A stretch of 64,000 bases of DNA, taken from positions 6,597-70,596 of the forward strand of contig CAXXEO010000015.1 of NCBI GenBank assembly GCA_963664585.2. Direction: 5' to 3'. The notes beneath the pieces were generated by a model, which did no database searches, was not told the DNA's origin, and saw only the letters and a program-made list of their open reading frames with translations. This document shows, one piece after another, positions 2,448 to 63,880 of the stretch. Position numbers and translations under genes: made by a program. Each line of letters starts with the position of its first letter. Position 1 is the first letter of the stretch. Source of the DNA: Oscillospiraceae bacterium. GTDB taxonomy: Bacteria; Bacillota; Clostridia; Oscillospirales; Ruminococcaceae.

Positions 2448-2554
2448 TATAGCCAATTAACTTAAAAACTGGCTATATATATAACGTCATTTTCTTCCCC
2501 CGCCTTCGGCGGGGGAAGAAATCACAAGCTTGTTTTCAAATTAATCAACTATAT
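2448..2554 (+). repeat. F1 repeat copy, orientation A
   Basis: TATAGCCAATTAACTTAAAAACTGGCTATA...TTCTTCCCCCGCCTTCGGCGGGGGAAGAA...ACAAGCTTGT...TTAATCAACTATA, in a divergent intergenic region. Confidence 0.9.
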
Positions 2555-2729
2555 CATAGCGAAATATAAAACATGTACAAGAGTGGTAAGTCCTTGTCAA
2601 TTGAGAAATGCTTTTTTCATTCGAAAGACAGTCAGACTTTTATTGAAAGGGATACTGCCTTGTTATATAATCAATTATGCGACAACATATTTGTATTTAA
2701 CGAAACCTAAAAGTGCAAAGGGGTCAATT

Positions 2730-3179
2730 ATGGAGCTTCACTACATACCAACATTCGCATCAAAAGAAGACATTGAAATCTGGATGGAGCTTGTCGAACT
2801 GGTACAGGACAACTTCCCCGGTTTAGTCATCGAGGATTATAAGAAAGCGTTGGAACAAAGCATCACACAGAAGATGGCGCTTCTTGTAAAAACAGAAGGT
2901 AAAGCAGTGGGTACGATGCTGTTTTCTTATCAAAACAATGAAATATGCTTTCTTGCGGTGCACCCCCAGTACAGACAAAACGGTATTGCGACTGCATTAG
3001 TAACCGAAATGCTAAAACAGCTGCCGGAAGAGGCAAAAATCACCGTAAGCACATTCCGGCAAGATGACCCAAAAGGGAAAGCAGCACGGGCATTTTACAC
3101 GAATCTGGGTTTTACACCGGGAGCGCTCATAGAAGAATTCGGGTATCACTGTCAACAATTTGTTTATACCCGAAAGTAA
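2730..3179 (+). CDS. GNAT family N-acetyltransferase
   Basis: ORF 2583..3179, trimmed to ATG 2730 behind an AAAGGGG RBS. Acetyl-CoA motif VHPQYRQNGIATALV. Confidence 0.8.
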   Translation: MELHYIPTFASKEDIEIWMELVELVQDNFPGLVIEDYKKALEQSITQKMALLVKTEGKAVGTMLFSYQNNEICFLAVHPQYRQNGIATALVTEMLKQLPEEAKITVSTFRQDDPKGKAARAFYTNLGFTPGALIEEFGYHCQQFVYTRK

Positions 3180-3252
3180 TTAAAAATAGAGCAATACAGG
3201 TCAAGAAAACCTTCCTCCCAGCATGGTATTCTTTTTAGCAGGAGGTGAGATT

Positions 3253-4155
3253 ATGGAAAGCTGGGAAAAGATAGTTGCCGTGCAGCATATGCAGGATTAT
3301 ATCGAAGAGCATATGACAGAAACGATCACCCTCTTAATGCTGGCAAGTGCCGCCGGGTATTCGCCTTGGCACAGTGCGAGGATCTTCAAAGAGATTACAG
3401 GCAAAGCACCATTTGAATACATCCGCACCTTGCGCTTGTCCCATGCGGCCGCTAAACTGCATGATGAGGATGTCAAGATTATTGATGTAGCATTTGACTT
3501 TGTCTTTGATTCGCACGAAGGCTTCACAAGAGCATTCTCGCGAGAGTTTGGCATGACTCCGAAATACTACAGCAAGAACACGCCGCTGTTAAAGCTCTTT
3601 CTTCCCAGCCATGCCCGTGATTATTACCTTACTCAGCAAAAAGGAGATGGCAAAATGGCAAAAGATCTTCATACTGTATTTGTTCAGGTGGTTGACCGTC
3701 CAGCAAGAAAGCTGATTTTAAAGCGCGGCATCAAAGCGGCACATTACTTTGAATTCTGTGAGGAAGTCGGCTGCGAAGTATGGGATGTCCTTTCTGGCAT
3801 TAAAGAAGCTCTATATGAGCCAATTGGCATGTGGTTGCCGGAAAGCTTAAAAAAGCCCGGCACGTCGGTGTACACACAGGGTGTAGAAGTAGCTGAAGAT
3901 TATTCTGGTAAAGTACCTGAGGGATATGAATTGGTTCATCTGGCACCGTGCAAGATGATGGTTTTTCAGGGCCCGCCCTATGACGATGAGAAATTCGAAG
4001 AGGCAATCAGCGAGCTTTGGGAAGTGATGAAAAGCTATAACCCCGTGCTTTATGGCTTTGAATGGGCCGATGAGGATGGACCTAGATTTCAACTTGCACC
4101 GATGGGATACCGGGGTTATATAGAAGCGAGACCGGTTCGTCAGTTGGGCAAATAA
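3253..4155 (+). CDS. AraC-family transcriptional regulator with GyrI-like effector-binding domain
   Basis: ORF 3223..4155. Start at ATG 3253 after GGAGGTGAG. AraC HTH (SPWHSARIFKEITGKAPFEYIRTLRL...GFTRAFSREFGMTP) followed by a ~150-aa C-terminal ligand-binding-type domain. Confidence 0.85.
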   Translation: MESWEKIVAVQHMQDYIEEHMTETITLLMLASAAGYSPWHSARIFKEITGKAPFEYIRTLRLSHAAAKLHDEDVKIIDVAFDFVFDSHEGFTRAFSREFGMTPKYYSKNTPLLKLFLPSHARDYYLTQQKGDGKMAKDLHTVFVQVVDRPARKLILKRGIKAAHYFEFCEEVGCEVWDVLSGIKEALYEPIGMWLPESLKKPGTSVYTQGVEVAEDYSGKVPEGYELVHLAPCKMMVFQGPPYDDEKFEEAISELWEVMKSYNPVLYGFEWADEDGPRFQLAPMGYRGYIEARPVRQLGK

Positions 4156-4258
4156 AGCCAATTAACTTAAAAACTGGGTATATATAAAACGTCATTTTCT
4201 TCCCCCGCCTTCGGCGGGGGAAGAAATCACAAGCTTGTTTTCAAATTAATCAACTATA
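4153..4258 (+). repeat. F1 repeat copy, orientation A
   Basis: Begins TAAAGCCAATTAAC (consensus TATAGCC...). Its first 3 nt are the TAA stop of the AraC gene. Confidence 0.9.
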
Positions 4259-4347
4259 AAAATTCAATTCTTTCTTTACGAACGTCTTCCGATTTATTTC
4301 GGGTGGCGTTTTCTTCGCTCATAAAGTTTATGATTTCAAATCCCCCC

Positions 4348-4376
4348 TTGACATTTTCTATCATTTACAATACTAT
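4348..4376 (+). promoter_or_regulatory. sigma-A-type promoter, TTGACA-17-TACTAT
   Basis: TTGACA at 4348-4353, a 17-nt spacer, TACTAT at 4371-4376, about 65 nt upstream of ATG 4441. Confidence 0.55.
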
Positions 4377-4381
4377 GTACT

Positions 4382-4418
4382 TAGTGGTTTAGTAATTTAG
4401 TAATTTAGTAATTTAATA
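4382..4418 (+). repeat. 8-bp tandem repeat TAGTAATT, about 4.5 units, in the predicted 5' leader
   Basis: TAGTGGTT TAGTAATT TAGTAATT TAGTAATT TAATA, read directly. It lies between the predicted promoter and the RBS of the 4441 gene. Confidence 0.85.
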
Positions 4419-5282: not shown

Positions 5283-5558
5283 ATGCGTTCGATTGCAACG
5301 TTTTTGGATGAAGCAGGAAAGATTAAGAAGCTCCCAGCAAAAAGAGAGCCCAGACGTGCTGTCTTAGAGTATCTTGCCACCAGGTTTTCCTGTGACAGGG
5401 ATTATACAGAAAAAGAAGTAAACGTAATCATTGACAGCTGGCACACCTTCGGCGATTATTTTGTACTGCGACGTGAACTGATCGAGCAGAAGTTCCTTTG
5501 CAGAACAAGAGATGGCTCACGATACTGGAAAGAGGAAGTTGCTGCTATAGCCAATTAA
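5283..5558 (+). CDS. DUF2087-like domain protein
   Basis: ORF 5265..5558, trimmed to ATG 5283 after AGGAGG. YTEKEVNVIIDSWHTFGDYFVLRRELIE resembles DUF2087. The last four codons (ATA GCC AAT TAA) are F1 repeat sequence. Confidence 0.55.
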   Translation: MRSIATFLDEAGKIKKLPAKREPRRAVLEYLATRFSCDRDYTEKEVNVIIDSWHTFGDYFVLRRELIEQKFLCRTRDGSRYWKEEVAAIAN

Positions 5559-5644
5559 CTTAAAAACTGGCTATATATAAAACGTCATTTTCTTCCCCCG
5601 CCTTCGGCGGTGGAAGAAATCACAAGCTTGTTTTCAAGTTAATC
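5546..5644 (+). repeat. F1 repeat copy, orientation A, split by IS30-family copy 1 (remaining 11 bp at 6698..6708)
   Basis: The F1 sequence runs to ...CAAGTTAATC, then the IS end GCTACATTG. AATCAACTATA resumes after the IS. Confidence 0.9.
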
Positions 5645-6697
5645 GCTACATTGTAAAATGAAATGCGACAGAAAAAAGATAGCCCAAGGCAGCCAAAACG
5701 TGTAGAATAGAGTTTGCAACAACAACATTCACACAAGGAGGCAGCCATGAGCCACCACCATTTTACAACATTCGAACGAGGAAAGATAGAGGAACTCCGT
5801 CAAATCGGATATACGACCCGGAAAATCGCATCACGTCTGGGATGTCACCACAGCAGTATCGCTAGAGAATTGAAACGTTTTTGCGGTGCCCGAGCGTATA
5901 ACGCAGAAGAAGCACAACTGGATTACCAGAAGAAACGGCACAACAGCAAACCTCAAGGGAAATGGAACGAGGAGTTGTGCGCAGCTGTGGCAGAAAAGCT
6001 GAAAGAGACCTGGTCGCCAGAACAAATATCACATACCGTTACTTCAAGCCAACTGAGCTTTAAAACCATATACAACTGGCTTTATGCCGGACGACTGAAC
6101 GGACTTACCGCAGATGTGCTGCGCCGTAATGGAAAAAAGAGAAGCTGTAAAAATCTTGCGCATTATGCTCGTGGTACTTCTATCCGCAAGAGACCCAAAG
6201 AGGTATATACCAGAGAAACATTTGGGCATTGGGAACTTGATACGGTGGTTTTCTCTAGGGGTTCCAGCGGTTGCTTGGCCACCTTTGTGGAATGAAAAAC
6301 AAGGTTCTATACAGCCGTTCCCATTCCTGATCGAACGGCAGCTTCCATGGAAGCTGCAATCAAGCACCTGCACACTTTATTGCCACAAGGCACATTCAAA
6401 ACAGCAACAACAGATCGTGGCGGTGAATTTGCCTGTTATGATGTAATCCAGAAAGATCTAGGCTTAACTCTTTATTTCGCTGATCCATATTGTCCGCATC
6501 AGAGAGGAAGCAATGAGTACGGTAACGGTTTGCTCAGAGAGTTCTTTCCGAAAGGTACTGTTCTGTCCACTGTTTCTCATCAAAACCTATCTTCTTCTCT
6601 TCTGCTTATAAACAACAGACCCCGAAAATGTCTTAATTGGAATACACCTTCCCAGCTCTTTCTACTCGAACTGTCGCATTTGGCTTGACAATGTAGC
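5645..6697 (+). mobile_element. IS30-family insertion sequence, copy 1 (1053 bp), transposase inactivated
   Basis: Inverted repeats GCTACATTGTAAAATGAAATGCGACAG and CTGTCGCATTTGGCTTGACAATGTAGC. AATC is duplicated on both flanks. Confidence 0.9.
5747..6688 (+). pseudogene. IS30-family transposase with a nonsense mutation
   Basis: TGA at 6293-6295 where copy 3 has CGA, splitting the ORF into 5714..6295 and 6347..6688. Confidence 0.85.
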
Positions 6698-6805
6698 AAT
6701 CAACTATAGTGCTGACGCTGATCATTCGGAGAATTGACTTAGCCTGATGCATTTTAAATCCCGCCGGTTTACCGCTATTTTGGAACGCCTTTCGACATAG
6801 AAACA

Positions 6806-6847
6806 CCCCCAAAGCTAAACAGTATATATACTGTTTAGCTTTGGGGG
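6806..6847 (-). terminator. long perfect hairpin downstream of the kinase gene
   Basis: CCCCCAAAGCTAAACAGTAT AT ATACTGTTTAGCTTTGGGGG, a ~20-bp stem. On the minus strand it is followed by TGTTTCT. Confidence 0.6.
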
Positions 6848-6860
6848 TACAGCAGATTTG

Positions 6861-8300: not shown

Positions 8301-8452
8301 ATCAATCTATACGATTAGTTCGTTTTTATTGAATTTTTCATCTTAAAGCCTTTTAAAAGCAAAGAATCATCCGATTTAAACAGCATAACCTGAAGCCATT
8401 TATCAAACAAAGTAAAGGTTGGCCTTTAAAGATATTGCTTCTATAGTTGATT

Positions 8453-9504
8453 GCTACATTGTAAAATGAAATGCGACAGAAAAAAGATAGCCCAAGGCAG
8501 CCAAAACGTGTAGAATAGAGTTTGCAACAACAACATTCACACAAGGAGGCAGCCATGAGCCACCACCATTTTACAACATTCGAACGAGGAAAGATAGAGG
8601 AACTCCGTCAAATCGGATATACGACCCGGAAAATCGCATCACGTCTGGGATGTCACACAGCAGTATCGCTAGAGAATTGAAACGTTTTTACGGTGCCCGA
8701 GCGTATAACGCAGAAGAAGCACAACTGGATTACCAGAAGAAACGGCACAACAGCAAACCTCAAGGGAAATGGAACGAGGAGTTGTGCGCAGTTGTGGCAG
8801 AAAAGCTGAAAGAGACCTGGTCGCCAGAACAAATATCACATACCGTTACTTCAAGCCAACTGAGCTTTAAAACAATATACAACTGGCTTTATGCCGGACG
8901 ACTGAACGGACTCACCGCAGATGTGCTGCGCCGTAATGGAAAAAAGAGAAGCTGTAAAAATCTTGCGCATTATGCTCGTGGTACTTCTATCCGCAAGAGA
9001 CCGAAAGAGGTATATACCAGAGAAACATTTGGGCATTGGGAACTTGATACGGTGGTTTCCTCTAGGGGTTCCAGTAGTTGCTTGGCCACCTTTGTGGAAC
9101 GAAAAACAAGGTTCTATACAGCCGTTCCCATTCCTGATCGAACGGCAGCTTCCATGGAAGCTGCAATCAAGCACCTGCACACTTTATTGCCACAAGGCAC
9201 ATTCAAAACAGCAACAACAGATCGTGGCGGTGAATTTGCCTGTTATGATGTAATCCAGAAAGATCTAGGCTTAACTCTTTATTTCGCTGATCCATATTGT
9301 CCGCGTCAGAGAGGAAGCAATGAGTACGGTAACGGTTTGCTCAGAGAGTTCTTTCCGAAAGGTACTGTTCTGTCAACTGTTTCTCATCAAAACCTGTCTT
9401 CTTCTCTTCTGCTTATAAACAATAGACCCCGAAAATGTCTTAATTGGAATACACCTTCCCAGCTCTTTCTACTCGAACTGTCGCATTTGGCTTGACAATG
9501 TAGC
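8453..9504 (+). mobile_element. IS30-family insertion sequence, copy 2 (1052 bp), transposase frameshifted
   Basis: Same inverted repeats as copy 1. Flanked by TATAGTTGATT and GATTAACTTG, so it sits inside an orientation-B F1 copy with GATT duplicated. Confidence 0.9.
8555..9495 (+). pseudogene. IS30-family transposase with a 1-nt deletion
   Basis: GATGTCACACAGC near 8656 versus GATGTCACCACAGC in copies 1 and 3. Only the 281-aa ORF 8650..9495 remains open. Confidence 0.85.
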
Positions 9505-9603
9505 GATTAACTTGAAAACAAGCTTGTGATTTCTTCCCCCGCCGAAGGCGGGGGAAGAAAATGACGTTTTAACTATAGCCAGTTTTTAAGTTAATTGGCT
9601 ATA
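9505..9603 (-). repeat. F1 repeat copy, orientation B, split by IS copy 2 (other 11 bp at 8442..8452)
   Basis: GATTAACTTGAAAACAAGCTTGTGATTTCTTCCCCCGCCGAAGGCGGGGGAAGAAAATGACG...TTAATTGGCTATA. The loop reads GAA on the top strand. Confidence 0.9.
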
Positions 9604-9674: not shown

Positions 9675-10955
9675 CTATTCCTTGCCCCAGAAGCTTTCAT
9701 GCTCCGCCCAAAGGCCAACAGCTGGATTAGATATATAAAACACCTCTTCCGAGTCGATGGTATTAAACCCATCCTTCATACTATGGATTGGGTATTTCTC
9801 CATCGCCTCTTCCAAAGACATATAGTGATAGTTGATGCCTTCAATTTCTTCCCTTGTCATATGGCCTGGAGCATAGGTAATCGTAAATCTGTCATCAGAG
9901 GAAGAATGGATGATGTGTGCCGCAACAGAAAGACTCTTTTGCAAATCCTCATTTTCCTGCGTCAGACGACAAATTCTATCCCGGCCCACATAGCCGTATT
10001 TTCGGATCAGCCTGTCGTTTTCTTTGTCCTCCCCGCAACCGCACAGACCCGGGGCAATGATAACCAGCTCTCCGCCGTCCTCTATACACATTCTGGTGCG
10101 GTAAATCGCCTTATTACCGATCCAGGTTCTTTTAAACTCTTTTTCATGCAGATAGACAATCACCTTTTTAAGTCTTTTGTCCAAAAAGGTAAGATTCTTT
10201 TGCTGGCTTATGGCAATGGCTTTTTCAAAGGTGTCTCTGTTTTCACCGATCGAAAGACATTCTACCTGAGGCTCCAAGCCTTTTACTGTAGTAACAGTGA
10301 GCATATAAAGGATGGGTACATTTTGCAAAAAATGCTCCAAAGCATAATCAAACAGTTTATGCACCGGAGTGTGGTCGCGGCCCATCATTTTTTCCATACC
10401 GTACAGCGCTCCGATATAATGGCTGGCATTGATCATCCCACTGCCGCCGCAGCCCACAAAAATATTCTTGTTATAGTTCGCCATGCCCACCACCTCGTGG
10501 GGCACTACCTGACCGACCGAAATAATGATGTCATAGCTTTTATCAAGAACGCGCTTGTTAATTTCAACGGGAACCGCTTCGCAGAAATAGCCGGCACTGA
10601 TTTCCTTGACAAATTCCGCCGGCACCTCTCCTATCTTGATGGTATCAGTCTTCCAGTTGTGTACTAAAAAACGATCATGTGGAATGGATGTATACATTTC
10701 ATCCAGCTCTTCTTCACTCATGGGCACATGGGTACCTAAGGCTGGCAGAATATCCACCTGAGCATTTTTGTCGGTCAAATACCGGTACAGCATCCGGGTG
10801 ATGGGGCCCGCATAGGAATTGGAACGTGACATATCGGGCGGAATAATCAGTGCTTTTTTAATATCCCTGTTTGCGAGTGCGTTTAATATGGCTTCATTAA
10901 TCTGCTCGTCACTGATCGGAAAGTCCTGTTTTGCATAAAGGCACAGATTACCCAT
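9675..10955 (-). CDS. LarA-like (DUF2088) nickel-dependent hydroxyacid racemase/epimerase family protein
   Basis: 426 aa with overall LarA-type organisation (...GQVVPHEVVGMANYNKNIFVGCGG...). Specificity is unknown. Confidence 0.65.
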   Translation of the reverse strand: MGNLCLYAKQDFPISDEQINEAILNALANRDIKKALIIPPDMSRSNSYAGPITRMLYRYLTDKNAQVDILPALGTHVPMSEEELDEMYTSIPHDRFLVHNWKTDTIKIGEVPAEFVKEISAGYFCEAVPVEINKRVLDKSYDIIISVGQVVPHEVVGMANYNKNIFVGCGGSGMINASHYIGALYGMEKMMGRDHTPVHKLFDYALEHFLQNVPILYMLTVTTVKGLEPQVECLSIGENRDTFEKAIAISQQKNLTFLDKRLKKVIVYLHEKEFKRTWIGNKAIYRTRMCIEDGGELVIIAPGLCGCGEDKENDRLIRKYGYVGRDRICRLTQENEDLQKSLSVAAHIIHSSSDDRFTITYAPGHMTREEIEGINYHYMSLEEAMEKYPIHSMKDGFNTIDSEEVFYISNPAVGLWAEHESFWGKE

Positions 10956-11070: not shown

Positions 11071-12474
11071 TCAGGCTTCGCTTTCCCACTGGGTATGGAA
11101 GTCTCCCTCGCGGTCAATACGTTGATAGGTATGAGCACCAAAACAGTCCCGCAGTGCCTGCACAAGGTTAAGCGGCATTTTATCCGTGTGTATACTGTCA
11201 TAGTAAGTGATCGTGGAGGCAAGAGCAGGCTCGGCAAGACCGGCCATCATGCCCTGCGCAACAACCTCTCTCCATGTTTTTTGCAGTTGATTTAGTTGTG
11301 GAGCAAACTCCTCGGTCAGAATAAGGTTATCGATATCCGGTTGTTGTCTGAGTGCATAGGTAATTTTCTCGAGAAGGCTTGAGCGTATGATACATCCGCC
11401 TCTCCATAGAGAAATGACATTCGGCAAATCAATCCCCCAACCGAAATCCTTGGATGCTTTTCGAATCAGCTCTATCCCCTGTGCATAACTGCAGATAATT
11501 CCGGCCAACAGTGCCTCTTCCAGGCTGTTTTGACCATTCTGTAAAACGAAGTTATGTTCTGGCGGTGTAAATAGTGCATTCCCCATCTGACGAAGATGTG
11601 TGTTCTTGGAAAGATAACGGGCAAATACTGCTTCAGAGATAGTGGGTATGTAAACGCCTCTTTCCATTCCTTCAATGAGGGTCCAACTGCCTGTTCCTTT
11701 TTGCTGCGCCACATCTAAAATATAATCAACCAACTGGCCACCTGTCAGTGGATCCTCTTTTTCTAGCACCAGCAAGGTGATATCAATCAGGTAGGAATCT
11801 AAAGCGCCCTTGGACCAGTCCTTAAAGGTTCCTGCGATCTCCTGATTGCTAAGCTTTAACCCCGTCCGCATCAAGTGATAGACATCTGCAATCAGTTGAA
11901 GAATTGCGTATTCAATACCATTATGCACCATCTTGACATAGTGTCCCGCTCCGCCGCCGCCGACATAGCCACAGCAGGAATCACTGCCGGCATGAGCGGC
12001 AATTAACTGTAAAATGCTGCCGCAATGCTCCCAAGCCTCGCGGCTTCCGCCAGCCATCATGCTGGGGCCCTCCAGAGCGCCTTTTTCACCGCCTGAAATG
12101 CCTGTTCCCAAATAGCAAATACCCTTTTCCTGTAAGGCCTGAAGCCGCCGCAAGGTATCCGTGTATCTGGAGTTTCCCCCATCAATCAATATATCACCCG
12201 GCACAAGATGGGGTGAAAGTTCCTCAATGACCATGTCAACCGGCGATCCCGCGGTAATCATAAGGAGTATGACTCTGGGCGTGGAAAGGCTTTCCACAAA
12301 TGCAGTCATCTCTTCAAAGACCTGCCAGTTCTTGTTTTCGGGACAACTAAACGATTTGCGTTCCTTTTCGGGTTTACTGTATAGTGCAGTGTTTACCCCA
12401 TGATGGATTAAATTCTTCGCCAGACTGCTGCCCATAACGCCCAGCCCATAGAGTCCAATTTGGTATTCCGTCAT
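11071..12474 (-). CDS. gnd: 6-phosphogluconate dehydrogenase, decarboxylating
   Basis: ORF 11071..12567, trimmed to MTEYQIGLYGLGVMGSSLAKNL. Contains IDGGNSRYTDTLRR and GTGISGGEKGALEGPSMMAGG. Confidence 0.9.
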   Translation of the reverse strand: MTEYQIGLYGLGVMGSSLAKNLIHHGVNTALYSKPEKERKSFSCPENKNWQVFEEMTAFVESLSTPRVILLMITAGSPVDMVIEELSPHLVPGDILIDGGNSRYTDTLRRLQALQEKGICYLGTGISGGEKGALEGPSMMAGGSREAWEHCGSILQLIAAHAGSDSCCGYVGGGGAGHYVKMVHNGIEYAILQLIADVYHLMRTGLKLSNQEIAGTFKDWSKGALDSYLIDITLLVLEKEDPLTGGQLVDYILDVAQQKGTGSWTLIEGMERGVYIPTISEAVFARYLSKNTHLRQMGNALFTPPEHNFVLQNGQNSLEEALLAGIICSYAQGIELIRKASKDFGWGIDLPNVISLWRGGCIIRSSLLEKITYALRQQPDIDNLILTEEFAPQLNQLQKTWREVVAQGMMAGLAEPALASTITYYDSIHTDKMPLNLVQALRDCFGAHTYQRIDREGDFHTQWESEA

Positions 12475-15280: not shown

Positions 15281-15384
15281 GCCTTGTAAAATCTAAATCC
15301 TTATGGCAATGGGTTAAATGTCTTTATATATTCCCCCGCCTTCGGCGGGGCAATATATAAGTTTAAGATGTTACATTGTACTAG
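15281..15384 (-). repeat. F2 repeat copy with GC hairpin core, orientation Y
   Basis: GCCTTGTAAAATCTAAATCCTTATGGCAATGGGTTAAATG...TATATTCCCCCGCCTTCGGCGGGGCAATATA...GATGTTACATTGTACTAG. Confidence 0.85.
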
Positions 15385-15396
15385 TATGGCAGCCTC

Positions 15397-17250: not shown

Positions 17251-17356
17251 TATAGCCAATTAACTTGAAAATTGGCTATAGATAAAACGTCATTTTCTTC
17301 CCCCGCCTTCGGCGGGGGAAGAAATCACAAGCTTGTTTTCAAATGAATCAACTATA
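17251..17356 (+). repeat. F1 repeat copy, orientation A
   Basis: Variant with an 11-bp first stem, TATAGCCAATT AACTTGAAA AATTGGCTATA. Core loop TTC. Confidence 0.9.
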
Positions 17357-18210: not shown

Positions 18211-19383
18211 TTAATGATGAAACAATCTGACTCTGGTGAATGCCATCGCAATGTTATATTTGTCACAGGTTCCAATCACATGATCATCGCGAATTGACCC
18301 GCCTGTTTGTGCGATGAATTCGACACCGCTTCTATGCGCACGTTCAATATTATCACCGAAAGGGAAGAAAGCGTCGGACCCCAATGATACTCCCATAAAT
18401 GTATCCAACCATCTTCTTTTTTCTTCATAGGTAAATGGGTCGGGTCTTTTTGTAAAAATTTCTTCCCAACAGCCATCCGAAAGAATTTGTGCGCTATCAA
18501 CGGAGAGGTAACCATCAATCGCATTGTCCCGTTCTGGACGTTGGATGCTTTCTTTAAAAGGGAGGTTTAGCACCTTGGGATTTTGGCGCAAATACCATTG
18601 ATCCGATTTATCCCCTGCCAGGCGAGTGCAATGAATTCTTGATTGCTGTCCGGCTCCAATCCCTATTGCCTGACTGTCTTTTACATAACATACAGAATTT
18701 GATTGTGTATATTTCAGGGTGAGTAATGCGATGATGAGATCAGTTTTAGCGTCACTGGGAATCTCTTTGTTCAGGGTTGGAATTTCTTGCAGTAATTCTT
18801 CTGAAATCTTCACCTCATTTGTTCCCTGTTCAAATGTAATTCCAAAAACGTCCTTTTGTTCAACCAAATTCGGTTTGTAATTTTCGTCGATCTGGATAAT
18901 CGTGTAAAGCCCCTTGCGCTTCTTTTTTAAAATGTCGAGTGCTTTTTCTTCATACTCGGGAGCGACAATGCCATCCGAAACTTCCCTGGCAATGAGCGTT
19001 GCCGTGGACACGTCGCAAATATCGGATAAAGCGATAAAGTCTCCATATGAAGACATCCTGTCCGCACCTCTAGCTCTTGCGTAAGCCGATGCCTGCGCGG
19101 ATAGCTCCAAATCATCCACGAAATATATTTTTCTTAGCGTTTTACTCAAAGGCTTACCTATCGCTGCCCCCGCTGGGCTGACATGCTTAAAAGACGCAGC
19201 CGCAGTAAAACCCGTTGCCTGTTTTAGTTCCTTTACCAATTGCCAACCGTTAAAGGCATCTAAAAGATTGATATAGCCTGGATTTCCATTCAGAATCTTT
19301 ATCGGCACCTCGCCGGTTTTCATAAATATTCTCGCTGGCTTTTGATTGGGATTGCATCCATATTTTAGTTCCATTTCAGTCAT
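18211..19383 (-). CDS. AICAR transformylase-type protein (PurH formyltransferase domain only)
   Basis: 390 aa. The MELKYGCNPNQKPARIF start and GIGAGQQSRIHCTRLA are typical of the AICARFT domain. No IMP cyclohydrolase/MGS domain. Confidence 0.75.
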   Translation of the reverse strand: MTEMELKYGCNPNQKPARIFMKTGEVPIKILNGNPGYINLLDAFNGWQLVKELKQATGFTAAASFKHVSPAGAAIGKPLSKTLRKIYFVDDLELSAQASAYARARGADRMSSYGDFIALSDICDVSTATLIAREVSDGIVAPEYEEKALDILKKKRKGLYTIIQIDENYKPNLVEQKDVFGITFEQGTNEVKISEELLQEIPTLNKEIPSDAKTDLIIALLTLKYTQSNSVCYVKDSQAIGIGAGQQSRIHCTRLAGDKSDQWYLRQNPKVLNLPFKESIQRPERDNAIDGYLSVDSAQILSDGCWEEIFTKRPDPFTYEEKRRWLDTFMGVSLGSDAFFPFGDNIERAHRSGVEFIAQTGGSIRDDHVIGTCDKYNIAMAFTRVRLFHH

Positions 19384-19413: not shown

Positions 19414-19459
19414 TAAAAAAGCCAACTATCCGGGTTGTTTGCCCAGACGGTCGGCTTTT
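19414..19459 (-). terminator. intrinsic terminator candidate
   Basis: Minus strand: AAAAGCCGAC...GTTGGCTTTTTTATTG, downstream of the flavin reductase-like gene. Confidence 0.45.
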
Positions 19460-19773
19460 ATGTCATACTCCCTTGTGGTTATCCACATCCGTCAGTAATA
19501 TGACTCTTTATTTTAGTTTAAACTCAAAATGACTGATTGTCAATGTTAAGCTATACGAAAAGTCACTGCCCTTATCCAAGTTCCATTTAACACGAATCCC
19601 AATTTCAACAGCAATGATCCACCTCTGTTTCCCCCGCCTCCGGTGGCGAAACAGAGGGAATAATTAAGTGTGATTTAGAGAAGATTCAGTATGAACGATG
19701 TAGGAAATAGGGTGATGATAAAAGGGATGTACTTATCGATCTTCACAGCCTTGTTAATGGATTTTTGTTATTT

Positions 19774-22896: not shown

Positions 22897-23002
22897 TATA
22901 GTTGATTAACTTGAAAACAAGCTTGTGATTTCTTCCCCCGCCTTTGGCGGGGGAAGAAAATGACGTTTTATCTATAGCCAATTTTCAAGTTAATTGGCTA
23001 TA
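22897..23002 (-). repeat. F1 repeat copy, orientation B
   Basis: TATAGTTGATTAACTTGAAAACAAGCTTGTGATTTCTTCCCCCGCCTTTGGCGGGGG... The loop reads TTT on the top strand despite B orientation. Confidence 0.9.
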
Positions 23003-29700: not shown

Positions 29701-29738
29701 GTATCATATTTCGTGTTAATGTTAGTACAACGAAACAC

Positions 29739-37575: not shown

Positions 37576-37587
37576 TCTATTTCACTT

Positions 37588-38082: not shown

Positions 38083-38917
38083 CTTCTTTCTTGCAAGAAA
38101 TGGTTACGGTATCATTGATCGGACATGATATTTCGCTGGTGCACTGATGGCAGCTTATACACTGATGATCATTCACCATGTTTGAAGTTGACACTTCAAT
38201 ATTCATCGGGCATACTGCGTCGCATTTTTTACAGCCAACACAGGTGTCTTTGTTGCGCCGTATTTTAAAGATGCGGAACCGGTTAAACAGTCCAAGGAGT
38301 GCCCCATAAGGGCAAAAATACTTACACCAGGGCCTTTCTATAAATAATGAAAGGACAGTAATCACGCCAAGTGCTATGTACGCCGATAAGGCAACTTCAC
38401 TTGTAAAAAAGTTGAACAACGCATAATAAGGGTCTACTGATTGGAATAACAATTTGGCTGTGACGGCAGTTTGGTAGAGGACCATCGCCAAAACTCCGTA
38501 TCTTAAATATCGCAGCAGGTTGTCCAGCTTTTGAGGTACAAAGCAGTTGTACTTTTTGGGGAAAAGCCTTCTGCCGATTTTCCCAATCCATTCTTGAAAT
38601 GTGCCAAACGGACATATATACCCACAAAAAAGTGCCCCAAAAAGAAGTGCGACAATCATTCCCAAAATCATCAGTATGAACGATGAATTGTGGATCTTTT
38701 GAATGAAGCTTCCCGAAGTTGCGAATTCATAAATGGTTGCAACCCCTCCAAATGGGCAAACTGCGTGTAATGATGCATCTGGAAGAAAAGGTATTCTAAT
38801 CCCCTTTTCCGCTAACCACTTACTGATGGAAATGCTAAATACCAAAACCAAAACAGAAACCTGCGTCATTGTTCTCCAAGTACCCGCTTTGCTCTTTTTT
38901 GCATTCATTTGCTTCAC
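38063..38917 (-). CDS. polytopic 4Fe-4S binding membrane protein (NapH/MauN-like)
   Basis: Several TM segments, CPFG motifs, and a C-terminal CVGCKKCDAVCP ... CISCHQC cluster. Confidence 0.7.
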   Translation of the reverse strand: MKQMNAKKSKAGTWRTMTQVSVLVLVFSISISKWLAEKGIRIPFLPDASLHAVCPFGGVATIYEFATSGSFIQKIHNSSFILMILGMIVALLFGALFCGYICPFGTFQEWIGKIGRRLFPKKYNCFVPQKLDNLLRYLRYGVLAMVLYQTAVTAKLLFQSVDPYYALFNFFTSEVALSAYIALGVITVLSLFIERPWCKYFCPYGALLGLFNRFRIFKIRRNKDTCVGCKKCDAVCPMNIEVSTSNMVNDHQCISCHQCTSEISCPINDTVTISCKKEGGSFEN

Positions 38918-39191
38918 GTCCTTATCTTTATTATTTTAAAGATAACTGTCAACCATGGCAAAAATGTGTTTTTAATTTTCTTAATCTGTGGTGTCGCCTG
39001 CGAAACAATACTTCCATCTTTATTAATAGCCTCTTACTTTATCGAAAATATTTAGAGTCTTTAAATAAACCTGGTGATATCATAAAAAGAAACACGGGAG
39101 TTAGCCTGACCGGCCTCCCCACTTGACCGTCAATTTTTACAGAGTATAATTGAAAATATAATATGATAAAAGAAAGCTTACAGGTGACTTA

Positions 39192-40586
39192 ATGCATTTC
39201 AATTCTGTGAAGAGAAACATTGAGCAAAGACGCGATCTTATTTTAAATGGTCCTGTATCGACAACCATTTTACTGCTTTCCGTCCCCGCACTCATGATGG
39301 GTCTCGTACAGTCTGCAATACCGGTGATTGATGGCCTTTTTCTCAACAATATCGCCGGTACCATCGCAGCAAGCGCCGTTTCATATTGCACGCCCATTGT
39401 CAACATGGCCGTAGCGCTGGCGCAGGGCTTGAGTGTAGCCGGGATGGCAATTATCGGTCAGTCCAATGGGAAAGGAGACTTTAAAGAGGGTCAGCGCATT
39501 TCAACCCAGATGATCGTCTTTGCTTTCTTGCTGGGTTTGATTTTAGTTCCGGTTCTTATCACCTTCGCCTTCCCTGTGTCGTCGCATGTAAATGCAGAGA
39601 TTTCTCACGATGTTTTTTTATATCTTTCTCTAAGCGCTTTCGTACTGCCTTTTTCATTTATGGAATCAATCTATAATGCTATCAAGAATGCAAGCGGAAA
39701 ACCAGAGGATTCTTTTACACGAATGGCGCTCATGCTGGTACTCAAAATAATATTTAACGCTTTATTCATTGCCGTCTTCCGTTGGGGCATTATCGGTTCC
39801 GTAATGGCTTCACTGGTATCCAATATTTTAATTACCACATGGATGTATTATGAACTGTTTATCAAATCCGGCAATGACAAACTTATCTTAACTGGTTTTA
39901 AATTTGATCGTCAGATTATACGAGAGCTTCTGCATATCGGTTTACCATCCATGCTTTCAAGCGTCATGCTCAATCTGGGGTTTTACCTGATTAACAATGA
40001 GGTTCAGAAATTCGGCGCGATTGTCTTGAATGGCCAGGGTATTGCCAATAACATCTCATCCGTTTGCTTTATAGTTCCTGCATCATTTGGTTCGTCTGTC
40101 ACCACCATGGTCAGCATGAACATTGGGGCGGGTCAGGGTCAGAAAGCACGCGAATCATGTTTGGTTGGCTGTATCATTAGCGCAATCACCGCCGTTATTT
40201 TGATTGCAATTGTCGTGCCGCTGTCATCACGAATTACCATCCTTTTCACACGATCAAAAGATGTCCTTGAAATTGCAAATAACGCTTTACATATCTATAC
40301 CTATTCCGTGGTGGGCTTTGCTATATGTATGGTACAGCAAGGGGCGTTTATCGGTTTGGGACTGACGCGTGTTACTTTGGTTATCAGCATTCTGCGCGTA
40401 TGGCTTTTGCGGTATGTCTTCATCTTACTAACAGAGCGTTATCTCGGCTTTTATTCGGTATTCTGGGGCAATCTCTTTTCAAATTATATGGGTGCTGTGA
40501 TAACGACCATACTGATTTTAAGGGTAAATTGGGTCTCATCTATACCCCAAAAGGAATTGGTGAAAAACGGCATTGAAACTTCCTAA
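39192..40586 (+). CDS. MATE family efflux transporter
   Basis: 464 aa, 12 hydrophobic segments, typical MATE N-terminus (ILNGPVSTTILLLSVPALMMGLVQS). Confidence 0.85.
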   Translation: MHFNSVKRNIEQRRDLILNGPVSTTILLLSVPALMMGLVQSAIPVIDGLFLNNIAGTIAASAVSYCTPIVNMAVALAQGLSVAGMAIIGQSNGKGDFKEGQRISTQMIVFAFLLGLILVPVLITFAFPVSSHVNAEISHDVFLYLSLSAFVLPFSFMESIYNAIKNASGKPEDSFTRMALMLVLKIIFNALFIAVFRWGIIGSVMASLVSNILITTWMYYELFIKSGNDKLILTGFKFDRQIIRELLHIGLPSMLSSVMLNLGFYLINNEVQKFGAIVLNGQGIANNISSVCFIVPASFGSSVTTMVSMNIGAGQGQKARESCLVGCIISAITAVILIAIVVPLSSRITILFTRSKDVLEIANNALHIYTYSVVGFAICMVQQGAFIGLGLTRVTLVISILRVWLLRYVFILLTERYLGFYSVFWGNLFSNYMGAVITTILILRVNWVSSIPQKELVKNGIETS

Positions 40587-40597
40587 TAATATGTCGG

Positions 40598-40658
40598 CGC
40601 AATGTAACATTGTATATTCCCCCGCCTTCGGCAGGGGAATATACAAAAACGTTTAAGC
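40598..40658 (+). repeat. partial F2 repeat with GC hairpin core
   Basis: GCGCAATGTAACATTGTATATTCCCCCGCCTTCGGCAGGGGAATATACAAAAACGTTTAAGC. It lacks the TTAACCCATTGCC arm. Confidence 0.7.
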
Positions 40659-40672
40659 AAAAAATTAAAAGA

Positions 40673-40703
40673 ACAGGGACTCTGTAAAGAATCCCTGTCT
40701 TTC
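40673..40703 (+). terminator. terminator candidate after the MATE gene
   Basis: ACAGGGA-N12-TCCCTGT followed by CTTTCC. The T-run is weak. Confidence 0.4.
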
Positions 40704-40986
40704 CAAGCTAATATTTAGTATCCCCGTAGGAAATTAAGAAGCCCAACTTAACCATCCCCCATTTTCTTTATATGCTAAACTGCTCGTATCATAATGGGTT
40801 CAAAGATAGATCGTTTCAACTTAATCATCTCCGATTCCGAACTAAATCCTTGCTTGCTCTTCATATTCAATTGTTAACTTGGGTACCGATTCATAAAGAA
40901 TACTGTCATACCCAATAGTTATTATGGTCTTTCGCCCTGATATTATTCAGTTTATTTTAATCCTATATTTTCCAGAATTAAAACAT

Positions 40987-41033
40987 TAAAAAAGCTCTGC
41001 CTGATGCATGATAAACACAGGCAGAGCTTTTTT
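40987..41033. terminator. bidirectional intrinsic terminator at the LysR gene end
   Basis: AAAAAAGCTCTGCCTG-N14-CAGGCAGAGCTTTTTTT. Confidence 0.8.
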
Positions 41034-41036
41034 TGA

Positions 41037-41906
41037 TTAAATCAATGATTTGTAAACGTCCAGAAATGGCTTAATCGCAGGATTATGGTTATTGGGTGCA
41101 TGCGCAAAGACAAAGGGAGTCATAAAGGGATGCTCCCCAATGTTTGTCATGGTCACATTTGCCGGCAGAGAATTCTTTAAAAACTCGGGTAGGAATGCAA
41201 CACCCAGTTTAGATTCAATCATGGCTAGCTGAGCACATAAAAAGTTTGTTTGGAGATAATGATGGGGCCGGTATCCATGCTGTGCACAAAGCTGTTTCAT
41301 ATCGTCGCCATAATCATCTTGCAGAATAATCAGGGTTTGCTCTTTCAGTATTTTTTGATCCTCAGGCTCCATAGACATGAAAGGGTGTTCATTATGAGCA
41401 CAGATCCCCCAAGACTCCGGATAGAGATTGTTCAAGACAGGTAAATCAAACTGTTCGGCACAGCTACTAGAACATAAGGCGATATCAATAAGCCCTTTCT
41501 TATAGCGATATGCAAGAATTTTATAAGAGAACTGCAAACAGGTGATTTCTATTTGTGGGTAAAGTTCTGAAAATGCTTGCATAGCTTTACACAAAAGTGC
41601 GTGTTCATAAGGGCCAACCCCGATTTTAATAGAACCGGTAATCCCCATAGACGCCTTTTGCGTTCGGTCAACCATGCCACTATAATACTCCAGCAAAAAA
41701 ATTGCTTCGCACAAAAAATGATCTCCCGCAGGCGTCAATTCCACTACACGGCTGTCTCGATAAAGCAGTGTTACACCAAGCTGTTCTTCCAAACACGCAA
41801 TTTGTCGACTCATGGCCGTTTGTGTAATGTGACAATCTTCGGCGGCTTTGGTGAAATTAAGATGCCGCGCCACACTGACATAACACTTCAGCTTATAAAA
41901 ATCCAT
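41037..41906 (-). CDS. LysR-family transcriptional regulator
   Basis: MDFYKLKCYVSVARHLNFTKAAEDCHITQTAMSRQIACLEEQLGVTL. Confidence 0.9.
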   Translation of the reverse strand: MDFYKLKCYVSVARHLNFTKAAEDCHITQTAMSRQIACLEEQLGVTLLYRDSRVVELTPAGDHFLCEAIFLLEYYSGMVDRTQKASMGITGSIKIGVGPYEHALLCKAMQAFSELYPQIEITCLQFSYKILAYRYKKGLIDIALCSSSCAEQFDLPVLNNLYPESWGICAHNEHPFMSMEPEDQKILKEQTLIILQDDYGDDMKQLCAQHGYRPHHYLQTNFLCAQLAMIESKLGVAFLPEFLKNSLPANVTMTNIGEHPFMTPFVFAHAPNNHNPAIKPFLDVYKSLI

Positions 41907-41975
41907 TTACAACATCCTTTCCGCAGTATCGAGCACCCATAGAAATGGCAAAACATTTATTGATGGGTGCATGTT

Positions 41976-41995
41976 TTTTATGCATTGTACAAATT
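41976..41995 (+). promoter_or_regulatory. 20-nt motif TTTTATGCATTGTACAAATT, copy 1
   Basis: Identical 20-mer at 52996..53015. Contains the palindromes ATGCAT and TTGTACAA. It sits 70 bp from the LysR start and just before TATAAT at 42001. Confidence 0.5.
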
Positions 41996-42160
41996 CTTGT
42001 TATAATGCTAGAATTTCTATGGTGAACTTAACATATTTTCGTTGAATATAATGCACAATTTGCTTTTTTGATTTTTGTTTAATATTCATACATTCGAAAA
42101 TTCTTTTGTCGAAAAGGCAAGAATGCAATGTCCTATTTTGTGCTAAACAGAGGAGCGGCT

Positions 42161-51259: not shown

Positions 51260-51365
51260 TATAGTTGATTAACTTGAAAACAAGCTTGCGATTTCTTCCC
51301 CCGCCGAAGGCGGGGGAAGAAAATGACGTTATATATATAGCCAGTTTTTAAGTTAATTGGCTATA
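51260..51365 (-). repeat. F1 repeat copy, orientation B
   Basis: Near-consensus. The loop reads GAA on the top strand. Confidence 0.9.
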
Positions 51366-60456: not shown

Positions 60457-60495
60457 AAAACAATCCTCTGCCGTGATGGCAGAGGATTGTTTTTA
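60457..60495 (+). terminator. intrinsic terminator of the second ABC/C26 operon
   Basis: AAAACAATCCTCTGCC-GTGA-GGCAGAGGATTGTTTTT. The F1 terminus starts inside the T-run. Confidence 0.85.
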
Positions 60496-60504
60496 TAGTT
60501 GATT

Positions 60505-61557
60505 GCTACATTGTAAAATGAAATGCGACAGAAAAAAGATAGCCCAAGGCAGCCAAAACGTGTAGAATAGAGTTTGCAACAACAACATTCACACAAGGAG
60601 GCAGCCATGAGCCACCACCATTTTACAACATTCGAACGAGGAAAGATAGAGGAACTCCGTCAAATCGGATATACGACCCGGAAAATCGCATCACGTCTGG
60701 GATGTCACCACAGCAGTATTGCTAGAGAATTGAAACGTTTTTACGGTGCCCGAGCGTATAACGCAGAAGAAGCACAACTGGATTACCAGAAGAAACGGCA
60801 CAACAGCAAACCTCAAGGGAAATGGAACGAGGAGTTGTGCGCAGCTGTGGCAGAAAAGCTGAAAGAGACCTGGTCGCCAGAACAAATATCACATACCGTT
60901 ACTTCAAGCCAACTGAGCTTTAAAACAATATACAACTGGCTTTATGCCGGACGACTGAACGGACTCACCGCAGATGTGCTGCGCCGTAATGGAAAAAAGA
61001 GAAGCTGTAAAAATCTTGCGCATTATGCTCGTGGTACTTCTATCCACAAGAGACCCAAAGAGGTATATACCAGAGAAACATTTGGGCATTGGGAACTTGA
61101 TACGGTGGTTTTCTCTAGGGGTTCCAGCGGTTGCTTGGCCACCTTTGTGGAACGAAAAACAAGGTTCTATACAGCCGTTCCCATTCCTGATCGAACGGCA
61201 GCTTCCATGGAAGCTGCAATCAAGCACCTGCACACTTTATTGCCACAAGGCACATTCAAAACAGCAACAACAGATCGTGGCGGTGAATTTGCCTGTTATG
61301 ATGTAATCCAGAAAGATCTAGGCTTAACTCTTTATTTCGCTGATCCATATTGTCCGCATCAGAGAGGAAGCAATGAGTACGGTAACGGTTTGCTCAGAGA
61401 GTTCTTTCCGAAAGGTACTGTTCTGTCCACTGTTTCTCATCAAAACCTGTCTTCTTCTCTTCTGCTTATAAACAATAGACCCCGAAAATGTCTTAATTGG
61501 AATACACCTTCCCAGCTCTTTCTACTCGAACTGTCGCATTTGGCTTGACAATGTAGC
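60505..61557 (+). mobile_element. IS30-family insertion sequence, copy 3 (1053 bp), intact
   Basis: Same 27-bp inverted repeats. Flanked by TATAGTTGATT and GATTCACTTG (GATT duplicated), inside an orientation-B F1 copy. Confidence 0.92.
60607..61548 (+). CDS. IS30-family transposase (313 aa from ATG behind AAGGAGG)
   Basis: N-terminal HTH (FERGKIEELRQIGYTTRKIASRLGCHHSSIAREL). DDE region WELDTV ... TDRGGEF ... PHQRGSNEYGNGLLREFFPKG. Confidence 0.92.
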   Translation: MSHHHFTTFERGKIEELRQIGYTTRKIASRLGCHHSSIARELKRFYGARAYNAEEAQLDYQKKRHNSKPQGKWNEELCAAVAEKLKETWSPEQISHTVTSSQLSFKTIYNWLYAGRLNGLTADVLRRNGKKRSCKNLAHYARGTSIHKRPKEVYTRETFGHWELDTVVFSRGSSGCLATFVERKTRFYTAVPIPDRTAASMEAAIKHLHTLLPQGTFKTATTDRGGEFACYDVIQKDLGLTLYFADPYCPHQRGSNEYGNGLLREFFPKGTVLSTVSHQNLSSSLLLINNRPRKCLNWNTPSQLFLLELSHLA

Positions 61558-61656
61558 GATTCACTTGAAAACAAGCTTGTATTTTCTTCCCTCGCCTTCG
61601 GCGGGGGAAGAAAATGACGTTTTATATATAGCCAGTTTTTAAGTGAATTGGCTATA
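61558..61656 (-). repeat. F1 repeat copy, orientation B, split by IS copy 3 (other 11 bp at 60494..60504)
   Basis: GATTCACTTGAAAACAAGCTTGTATTTTCTTCCCTCGCCTTCGGCGGGGGAAGAAAATGACG...GAATTGGCTATA. Loop TTC on the top strand. Confidence 0.9.
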
Positions 61657-62613: not shown

Positions 62614-62670
62614 TGTTTCCTTTCTCAGCCCCTTTTTGTTAGTTTATCATCTTTTCGCTCACATTGAAAC

Positions 62671-62776
62671 TATAGTTGATTAACTTGAAAACAAGCTTAT
62701 GATTTCTTCCCCCGCCTTCGGCGGGGGAAGAAAATGGAGTTTTATATATAGCCAGTTTTTAAGTTAATTGGCTATA
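62671..62776 (-). repeat. F1 repeat copy, orientation B, fused to an F2 copy
   Basis: Consensus core with TTC on the top strand. It ends GGCTATA, immediately followed by GTACAATGCAAC. Confidence 0.9.
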
Positions 62777-62878
62777 GTACAATGCAACATCATAAACTTG
62801 TAGTTTTTCGCGCCTTCGGCGGGGGAAACTACAAGAACATTTAACCCATTGCCATAAAAGATTTTGATTTTACAAGCC
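62777..62878 (+). repeat. F2 repeat copy with GC hairpin core, orientation X
   Basis: GTACAATGCAACATCATAAACTTGTAGTTTTTCGCGCCTTCGGCGGGGGAAACTACAAGAACATTTAACCCATTGCCATAAAAGATTTTGATTTTACAAGCC. Confidence 0.85.
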
Positions 62879-63078
62879 ACTAGAATTATGATTGGAGCCA
62901 GATCAAGAAAATCATTTATATCAGGATATCGATACCTATTTTGGACGAGTGAAATCATTTCTCAATATGCTTTGTGTTAGAATTACTAAGCATTTCTATA
63001 AATTTATATCTATACTTTATGGTCGCATGAATAAAAAAACGTTATAATAAAAATAAGAATAAAGAGGAGGTACATAAA

Positions 63079-63690
63079 GTGTCTATTGATGTTTCATTGT
63101 TTTTAGAAAACCTAGAAAAAAAGGGTTTTAAAACAAAGCACGTAAAAACCGCCAAAGATGCATGTAGTTTTCTTCTTTCTGAGATCGGCATCAATTCTTC
63201 AGTCGGAATCGGAGGATCAATGACGATTGAAGAACTTGGCATTGCGGATGCTCTTGCCGAACGGGGTAATCCTGTTTTTTGGCACTGGAAAGTTCCTTCG
63301 GAAAAAGCAAAGGAAACCAGAGAAAAAGCAAATTCATCCGATGTCTATCTCTGTTCCACGAACGCAGTTTCCATGGGCGGAACCTTTTACAATATTGACG
63401 GAACCGGAAACCGAGTTGCAGCCATTTCTTATGGAGGACAGCCTCTTTTTATCGTGATGAGCACAAGCAAAATTGCCCAAACGGAAAATGATGCAATGAA
63501 AAGGGTGAAGGATATAGCCTGTACACTCAATGCAAGGCGACTAAAACTCAATACACCCTGTGCAATAACAGGAAAATGTATTGATTGCTCTTCACCACAG
63601 CGTTTTTGCAATGTTACCTGCATTCTTGAAAGGCCAACTGGGAACCGAGAAGTACATATTGTGGTTGTAGATGAGAAACTTGGGTATTAG
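63079..63690 (+). CDS. LUD-domain (lactate utilisation protein-like, DUF162) protein
   Basis: GTG start behind AAAGAGGAGG. 203 aa. VGIGGSMTIEELGI and a C-terminal Cys cluster CAITGKCIDCSSPQRFC. Confidence 0.65.
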   Translation: MSIDVSLFLENLEKKGFKTKHVKTAKDACSFLLSEIGINSSVGIGGSMTIEELGIADALAERGNPVFWHWKVPSEKAKETREKANSSDVYLCSTNAVSMGGTFYNIDGTGNRVAAISYGGQPLFIVMSTSKIAQTENDAMKRVKDIACTLNARRLKLNTPCAITGKCIDCSSPQRFCNVTCILERPTGNREVHIVVVDEKLGY

Positions 63691-63711
63691 CCCGCATAAC
63701 ACGTATTCTTT

Positions 63712-63743
63712 AAAAACCCGTCATCAAGTATGGCGGGTTTTTT
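63712..63743 (+). terminator. intrinsic terminator of the LUD-domain gene
   Basis: AAAAACCCGTCA-N7-TGGCGGGTTTTTT. Confidence 0.75.
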
Positions 63744-63774
63744 GTATCCTGCCATCCGACTTTCATTGCATATA

Positions 63775-63880
63775 TATAGCCAATTAACTTAAAAACTGGC
63801 TATATATAAAACGTCATTTTCTTCCCCCGCCTTCGGCGGGGGAAGAAATCACAAGCTTGTTTTCAAGTTAATCAACTATA
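63775..63880 (+). repeat. F1 repeat copy, orientation A (consensus-like, 106 bp)
   Basis: The full consensus can be read directly here. Confidence 0.92.

Follow-up and report, generated by a model that had tools for sequence, protein, structure and literature searches.

The window analyzed here, a stretch of 64,000 nucleotides from an Oscillospiraceae bacterium (GenBank assembly GCA_963664585.2, contig CAXXEO010000015.1, positions 6,597 to 70,596), carries two dispersed repeat families, F1 and F2, which are non-coding, multi-copy, transposon-like repeats (miniature inverted-repeat transposable elements, MITEs) in a Bacillota chromosome. Both families contain a hairpin core with a three-nucleotide loop, and the polarity of this loop is uncoupled from the orientation of the flanking sequence. 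As far as comparison among the copies can show, the loop appears to have been inverted recurrently and independently in resident copies, the change being confined to the palindrome. This adds a case to an already known mutational process, here in an undescribed MITE family. The excess of TTC loops on the top strand of the window, in which the initial annotation saw a possible sign of a chromosome-strand-specific process, is real as a count and unproven as a property of the chromosome; chance in a small sample or regional sampling is its most likely cause. The account as a whole, combining recurrent template-switch flips with a small-sample or regional origin of the top-strand excess, is in our judgment reasonably probable.

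Loop polarity of the hairpin cores

A search of the whole 64-kb window with the core pattern CCCGCCNNNGGCGGG, allowing at most one mismatch, returned 20 matches compared with 0.01 expected by chance. All except one fall into F1 or F2, the remaining match at 25015 being unrelated to either family. The 19 family cores share the form CCCCCGCC-NNN-GGCGGGGG and are distributed over 14 F1 copies and five hairpin-bearing F2 copies. Their stems had been described as perfect palindromes, which does not hold throughout: seven cores (5597, 31221, 33369, 36290, 40621, 61591, and 62809) contain one mismatch within the inner 6 bp, and in core 15335 a stem mismatch lies farther out. The positions given in the initial annotation proved to be those of element starts and not of the cores themselves. 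Its view of the loop as the sole asymmetric mark of the palindrome is supported, and this mark is found inverted relative to the flanks.

F1 is present in six copies of orientation A (plus strand) and eight of orientation B (minus strand), plus one truncated end of 38 nt without a hairpin (37534-37571, minus strand). As stated before, all six orientation-A copies read TTC on the top strand, the canonical state. They are located at 2448-2553, with the palindrome at 2491-2521, at 4153-4258, at 5546-5644 (stem mismatch GGCGGT), at 17251-17356, at 33320-33425 (stem mismatch CCCGCT), and at 63775-63880, the latter being identical to the family consensus. Canonical copies of orientation B display GAA on the top strand, as confirmed for 9505-9603, 36457-36562, and 51260-51365. 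The other five are flipped, reading TTC at 31181-31286 (stem mismatch CCAGCC), 36250-36354 (CCCACC), 61558-61656 (CTCGCC), and 62671-62776, and TTT, i.e., a flip accompanied by one point change, at 22897-23002. The copies at 36250 (flipped) and 36457 (canonical) are 207 bp apart.

F2 measures approximately 90-110 nt and is represented by seven copies or backbones in the window. Among the five copies bearing the hairpin, four have orientation X (plus strand) and one has orientation Y (minus strand). All X copies contain the loop TTC: 29606-29708 (core 29650), 33951-34033 (core 33985), 40605-40656 (core 40621, truncated to the central part of the element and with the stem mismatch GGCAGG), and 62775-62885 (core 62809, stem mismatch CGCGCC). 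The lone Y copy (15300-15392, core 15335), situated between two minus-strand ABC-2 permease genes, also reads TTC on the top strand, corresponding to GAA in the family frame and hence to a flipped loop. Recounting over both families reproduced the earlier totals of 16 TTC or TTT loops and 3 GAA loops on the top strand.

Evidence for recurrent loop inversion

In order to separate loop polarity from element orientation, each copy was oriented by its flanks and the flanks were clustered into families, within which the flank orientations contained no inconsistent edges. In the family frame, the F1 copies of the window (14) together with those of a second contig (four copies; ENA ERZ21831019, 19.3 kb, hereafter L102) comprise 13 canonical GAA/CAA loops and five flipped TTC/TTT loops. 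Within the window, the flipped state accounts for five of 14 F1 copies and one of five F2 copies. The F2 ratio of 4:1 includes the truncated copy at 40621, added to the four copies (3:1) that had entered the clustering. In every case the flipped loop is the exact reverse complement of the canonical one and of the same length, with one additional point change in 22897. The flipped F2 copy retains its asymmetric edge (AGACA/GAACA) on the usual side. Since this edge has not moved, the module was apparently not re-inserted backwards, and only the interior of the palindrome would have been inverted.

The flipped F1 copies have no diagnostic substitution in common. Moreover, the left arm of the flipped copy at 22897 equals that of the unflipped copy at 17251, including three substitutions found in no other copy. 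Taken together, the absence of a common substitution and this mixed sublineage argue for several independent events and against a single flipped master copy. An age difference between flipped and unflipped copies was also considered and rejected, the mean divergence of 3.6 versus 2.3 differences not being significant. No orthologous pairs were encountered among 103 loci, composed of the listed matches from other genomes plus L102 and L103, the latter a relative with a 73%-identical helicase in which F1 was not found. After the best hit, the next homologue of a window gene shows 75% identity.

The same hairpin in other genomes

Extension of the analysis by a collection scan with the broad pattern TTCCCCCGCCNNNGGCGGGGGAA retrieved at least 101 loci, mostly from metagenome-assembled genomes (MAGs) of Ruminococcus and Oscillospiraceae. 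All counts for other genomes, here and below, are among the matches listed. In these, the TTCCCCCGCC-NNN-GGCGGGGGAA hairpin is the central part of at least five other repeat families, each possessing its own stem extension, and it looks like a conserved hairpin module. In the respective family frames, the loops were distributed as TGC 14 and GCA 2 in the first family (fam1), TTC 8, GAA 2, and TGC 2 in fam3, TTC 3 and GAA 2 in fam5, and ATA 3, TAT 2, plus others in fam2. Some copies, such as L037_4961 and L054_7049, are chimeras in which the left and right flanks come from different families, with the junction located exactly at the hairpin. Such chimeric flanks suggest that strands or templates are preferentially exchanged at the palindrome common to the families. 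Besides L037 4961 and L054 7049, examples of flipped or swapped loops or chimeric flanks include L010 5050 and L061 6992.

Template switching as the proposed mechanism

Loop inversion by template switching, which the initial annotation had put forward as a known route, fits the exact complements, the palindrome with its 14-bp arms, and the recurrence in unrelated copies and families. The arms being self-complementary, a nascent strand that has copied one arm could re-pair with the other arm, be it on the same strand, on the opposite side of the replication fork, or in a different hairpin copy. The switched strand would then copy the loop from the wrong strand before returning. As an outcome, the loop would be converted into its exact reverse complement, leaving the sequence outside the palindrome unchanged. 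One and the same process could also account for the chimeric flanks and swapped loops seen in other genomes. The enzymology of these steps is what we infer from the outcome.

Template switching at inverted repeats is the process formulated in the Ripley model. In large rRNA phylogenies, template switching has been named as the source of loop inversions (PMC8794818), and a further study describes spacer inversion and arm homogenisation as its results at inverted repeats (PMC8604942). For quasipalindromes, template switching is known to correct the arms, and the strand and the direction of the fork are known to influence it (PMC5941160, citing Rosche 1997, Yoshiyama 2001, and Seier 2011). The flips in F1 and F2 share with such mutations the exact-complement loop, the preserved length, the perfect inverted repeat, the recurrence, and the near-perfect arms. 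In contrast to the template-switch cases at unique loci or in rRNA stems, they concern dozens of copies of mobile repeats. A directionality with respect to the chromosome strand lies outside the established picture of template switching.

A second, well-known parallel is found in organelles. Small hairpin-associated inversions in plastid genomes were reportedly described by Kelchner and Wendel in 1996. Plastid inversions resemble those reported here in that short loops between inverted repeats switch to and fro in a homoplasious and flank-independent manner (PMC6824564), whereas they differ by their organellar location, single-copy and non-mobile nature, and usually longer loops.

If the strand bias is only noise, the two families constitute a clean natural case of a multi-copy element whose loops are inverted recurrently by template switching and, likewise, of chimera formation at a common palindrome. 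This would be useful to modellers of complex mutations, and loops of this kind would be unreliable as phylogenetic or orientation markers.

Strand bias of the loops and alternative explanations

The one-sided binomial probability of approximately 0.002 calculated earlier for the top-strand bias was reproduced (0.0022). Conditioning on orientation and on the number of flips yielded weaker evidence for F1 than the binomial (orientation versus flip, Fisher p = 0.031). The corresponding test for F2 resulted in p = 0.20, the combination of both tests by Fisher's method in p = 0.038, and the pooled table of F1 and F2 in p = 0.003. A relation of the loop to transcription direction, proposed as a check in the initial annotation, was not observed: for cores whose two neighbouring genes point the same way, the loop on the sense strand is UUC in five cases, GAA in four, and AAA in one. 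Sense-strand loops in other genomes were similarly balanced, with TTC 10 and GAA 10 as well as TGC 10 and GCA 9. L102 carries F1 together with the IS30-family insertion sequence (IS) that is also seen in the window. None of its four F1 copies is flipped, and one of its strands displays two TTC and two GAA/CAA loops. Pairs of cores with the same loop class within one locus of other genomes were concordant in 11 and discordant in 11 instances. The other hairpin loops of the window, which are too few, showed no pyrimidine excess on the top strand. A chromosome-strand-specific process is therefore not established by a bias that comprises 19 copies, has no link to transcription, and was not reproduced in L102 or elsewhere.

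Both the gene strand and the GC skew switch within the window at approximately 30000-42000. To the left (9.7-29.7 kb), genes are mostly located on the minus strand and the skew is negative, while the right part (42-61.5 kb) has plus-strand genes and positive skew. The switch region looks origin-like, yet neither dnaA nor dnaN nor any other marker of the replication origin (ori) or terminus (ter) is present in the window. The switch may represent a local inversion or a mere effect of gene orientation.

Several observations weigh against reading the excess as a small-sample or regional effect. The two-sided binomial probability is 0.0044, with a Bayes factor of approximately 27 against a uniform alternative for the 19 cores. 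All six flips are directed toward TTC on the top strand, affecting six of nine candidate copies and none of ten others (Fisher p = 0.003). When loops were read on the locally G-rich strand, considering only cores with an absolute GC skew of at least 0.03, GAA outnumbered TTC by 13:3 in the window, and it also prevailed in other genomes (16:9) and in L102 (2:1). Given a trend of equal sign elsewhere, a real replication-strand effect could lie behind it. Most window cores, and with them most TTC cores, are located in DNA of locally negative skew, and the lone core within a strongly positive block (51300, belonging to the F1 copy at 51260) reads GAA. Two further points concern the interpretation more generally. 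Nearest-neighbour DNA and RNA models assign equal energies to TTC and GAA hairpins, which supports neither side, and inversion in situ is deduced from the comparison of copies and not from an ancestral or orthologous state.

These observations would be explained by directional, replication-strand-linked flipping, the rate of which depends on the loop exposed as single-stranded DNA at the fork, with an equilibrium at which the G-rich strand carries GAA and the opposite strand TTC. The d(C-GAA-G) triloop hairpin is said to be unusually stable according to Hirao et al. The known dependence of quasipalindrome switching on strand and fork direction (PMC5941160) would also agree with a directional process. 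We nevertheless consider this explanation unlikely. The data independent of the window, i.e., the matches listed plus L102, amount to 18:10 and are not significant (exact one-sided binomial approximately 0.09). TGC/GCA loops showed no effect of the G-rich strand (13:18), and the overall ratio of purine-rich to pyrimidine-rich loops in other genomes was 43:35 based on 2-kb counts. Concordance within loci is balanced, as described above, and skew sign and loop in the window were not significantly associated (Fisher p = 0.5 for 4-kb bins and approximately 0.1 for ±2-kb windows). In addition, skew in Firmicutes is confounded with gene direction, itself lacking an association with the loop, and the window contains no ori or ter marker. 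The more specific proposition that inversion is directional to the fork, so that the chromosome strand and not the element determines polarity (the G-rich lagging-strand template carrying GAA), appears distinctly unlikely. If the strand link were true, hundreds of identical hairpins spread along a chromosome would report from within the genome how hairpin processing differs between the replication strands. To our knowledge, this asymmetry has so far been measurable only by means of reporter constructs in E. coli and yeast. Under fork-directed polarity, the direction of replication would be passively recorded in every MITE hairpin, and the families would provide natural, genome-scale evidence of strand-asymmetric template switching at hairpins.

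The remaining explanations do not involve the replication fork. A single ancient flip might have generated a second master copy and thereby two old loop subfamilies, which, in combination with orientation-biased insertion, would produce the observed excess. MITE copies are indeed non-independent samples, all five flipped F1 copies have orientation B, and L102 holds no flipped copy; still, we regard such a history as very unlikely, because no substitution separates flipped from unflipped copies, the sublineage of 17251 and 22897 contains both loops, and the uncoupling extends to F2 and to at least four unrelated families elsewhere. Many copies being positioned directly downstream of genes, selection at the RNA level could be envisaged, with a UUC loop favoured in a hairpin that serves as transcript terminator or stabiliser. 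The balance of sense-strand loops in the window and elsewhere leads to the rejection of this explanation. Furthermore, the stem is followed by an A-run and not a U-run on both strands, both loops have equal RNA folding energies, and an Rfam 15 scan of the window at the gathering score revealed no match at F1 or F2, rendering RNA-level selection highly improbable. Finally, the strands of reads could have been confused within a perfect palindrome during assembly or consensus calling. The source is a MAG, and the contigs L102 and L103, from two ENA assemblies, have names in long-read style such as ctg29651l. Reads are anchored by unique flanks, though, with both polarities occurring 207 bp apart (36250 and 36457), and flips appear across many independent assemblies; such confusion is also not known to prefer either strand of a contig. 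An artefact of this type is extremely improbable.

Structure of the F1 and F2 elements

F1 is 106 nt in length, begins with TATAGCCAATTAACTT, and ends with AAGTTAATCAACTATA. Its central palindrome, TTTCTTCCCCCGCC-NNN-GGCGGGGGAAGAAA, consists of 14-bp arms and the 3-nt loop. The element is 65-70% identical to its own reverse complement, and its single strand is predicted to fold into a rod with paired termini. Copies of F1 as well as F2 are intergenic and devoid of open reading frames (ORFs). Comparison of the filled site cattgTA[F1]TActag at 33320 with the intact F2 sequence cattgTActag demonstrates a TA target duplication. With its small size, its lack of coding sequence, its copy number (14 in 64 kb and four in L102), its terminal inverted repeats, and its TA duplication, F1 has the characteristics of a MITE. 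Neither an autonomous partner with F1 termini nor a cognate transposase was found in the window or in L102, and F1 patterns were absent from PLSDB plasmids, JGI metagenomes (searched with two patterns), and IMG/VR.

The F2 hairpin shares its core with F1 and has other stem extensions (TATATTCC.../...GGAATATA). Two members of the family lack the hairpin. In the backbone at 63926-63990 (plus strand), the approximately 47-nt palindromic module is absent (...AACATC|TTTAACCC...), indicating that this module can be gained or lost. In the second backbone, at 33262-33319 (orientation Y, minus strand), an unrelated 13-nt centre replaces the GC hairpin; it is the host of the nested F1 copy at 33320. Where present, the module lies between the repeats TTAAAC and TTTAAC, which makes both an insertion and a slippage-mediated loss of the palindrome possible. 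F1 is either nested in F2 (33320) or abuts it (62775, adjoined by the F1 copy at 62671), in both cases at neighbouring TA sites.

Comparison with known repeat systems

Correia elements duplicate TA upon insertion, as F1 does. The Correia repeat-enclosed elements of Neisseria (PMC5039591) are comparable to F1 in further respects, being intergenic and transposon-like, approximately 100-150 bp in size, and equipped with terminal inverted repeats and long hairpins. The terminal 14 nt are nearly equal, with TATAGTGGATTAAC in Correia elements and TATAGTTGATTAAC and TATAGCCAATTAAC in F1, one F1 end matching at 13 of 14 positions. Of the 26-bp terminal repeat of Correia elements (tatagtggattaac/aaatt...), only this initial stretch of 14 nt is similar. 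Since the rest of this repeat and the core differ, F1 is not a Correia element. Correia elements moreover belong to another phylum and have no GC-rich central palindrome, and loop flipping is not described for them. On the basis of the terminal nucleotides, the Correia-like ends of F1 may point to related transposases across very distant phyla. Irrespective of the bias, the GC-rich module of Oscillospiraceae and Ruminococcus and the Correia-like F1 termini are leads on undescribed MITE biology of gut Firmicutes.

Elhai et al. (2008; Genome Res 18:1484) reportedly described small dispersed hairpin repeats nested in cyanobacterial MITEs, the backbone of which occurs with or without them. F2 is similar in that the hairpin is present (29650) or absent (63926) in individual backbone copies, and it differs in sequence and phylum. 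Independent mobility of the module within F2 would explain the empty copy; slippage loss between TTAAAC and TTTAAC explains it equally well.

REP/REPIN sequences with their RAYT transposases (PMC3116915) are likewise abundant intergenic palindromes, and strand-specific handling of single-stranded DNA could give rise to a replication-linked polarity. REPs have neither terminal inverted repeats nor a TA duplication, both of which are features of F1. Pfam scans of 30 window proteins detected no Y1 (RAYT) transposase. Involvement of RAYT or IS200 was rejected, as the only Y1 transposase seen, that of L102, belongs to an ordinary copy of IS200, the end hairpins of which are unrelated to the repeats. 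This IS200/IS605-family gene is located at 11867-12325 on the minus strand of L102 and is accompanied by its own small hairpins; proteins of 85-93% identity are extremely widespread in gut-type assemblies of ENA. A Rho-independent terminator was tried as a candidate as well and rejected: GGAAGAAA comes after the stem on either strand, and loop polarity is unrelated to gene direction. In view of the A-run on both strands, the hairpin is not an intrinsic terminator.

Insertion sequences and genomic context

Three copies of the IS30-family element, all on the plus strand, interrupt F1 ends in the window. Copy 1 (5645-6697), with a frameshifted transposase, is inserted near the right end of the F1 copy at 5546, the remainder of which (AATCAACTATA) follows at 6698-6708. 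Copy 2 (8453-9504), with a transposase ORF damaged at its 5' end, separates the F1 copy at 9505 from its other end at 8442-8452. Copy 3 (60505-61557) encodes an intact transposase of 313 aa (homologues: Pfam PF13936, PF00665) and splits the end at 60494-60504 from the F1 copy at 61558. The insertion point GTTAATC|AAC within the F1 end is the same for all three, with a 4-bp duplication AATC/GATT and in either orientation relative to F1. A matching arrangement of an IS30-family element in F1 is found in L102 at approximately 9899-10952. These identical insertion points identify the F1 termini as a preferred target of the IS30-family element. The ends of the latter (GCTACATTGT...) differ from the F1 termini, F1 serving as the target.

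The gene content of the window comprises Bacillota housekeeping genes, including those for IMPDH, 6-phosphogluconate dehydrogenase, aldolase, thiolase, Opp transporters, and a DEAD-box helicase, and strong Shine-Dalgarno sites are present. A cyanobacterial genome of Nostoc type with small dispersed repeats was considered and rejected, since these sites, the genes present, and their homologues indicate Bacillota/Oscillospiraceae. The closest named relatives are Sporobacter and Hydrogenoanaerobacterium, with approximately 64-65% protein identity. The sole Rfam match in the window is a ZMP/ZTP riboswitch (RF01750, 56 bits) at 19434-19509 on the minus strand, upstream of an AICARFT/IMPCHase-type gene (18214-19383). 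Two further palindromes, long and perfect and with no relation to either repeat family, are situated downstream of genes at 6805-6848 and 60457-60493, one with 20-bp arms around TATA and the other with 16-bp arms around GTGAT; both are probably terminators.

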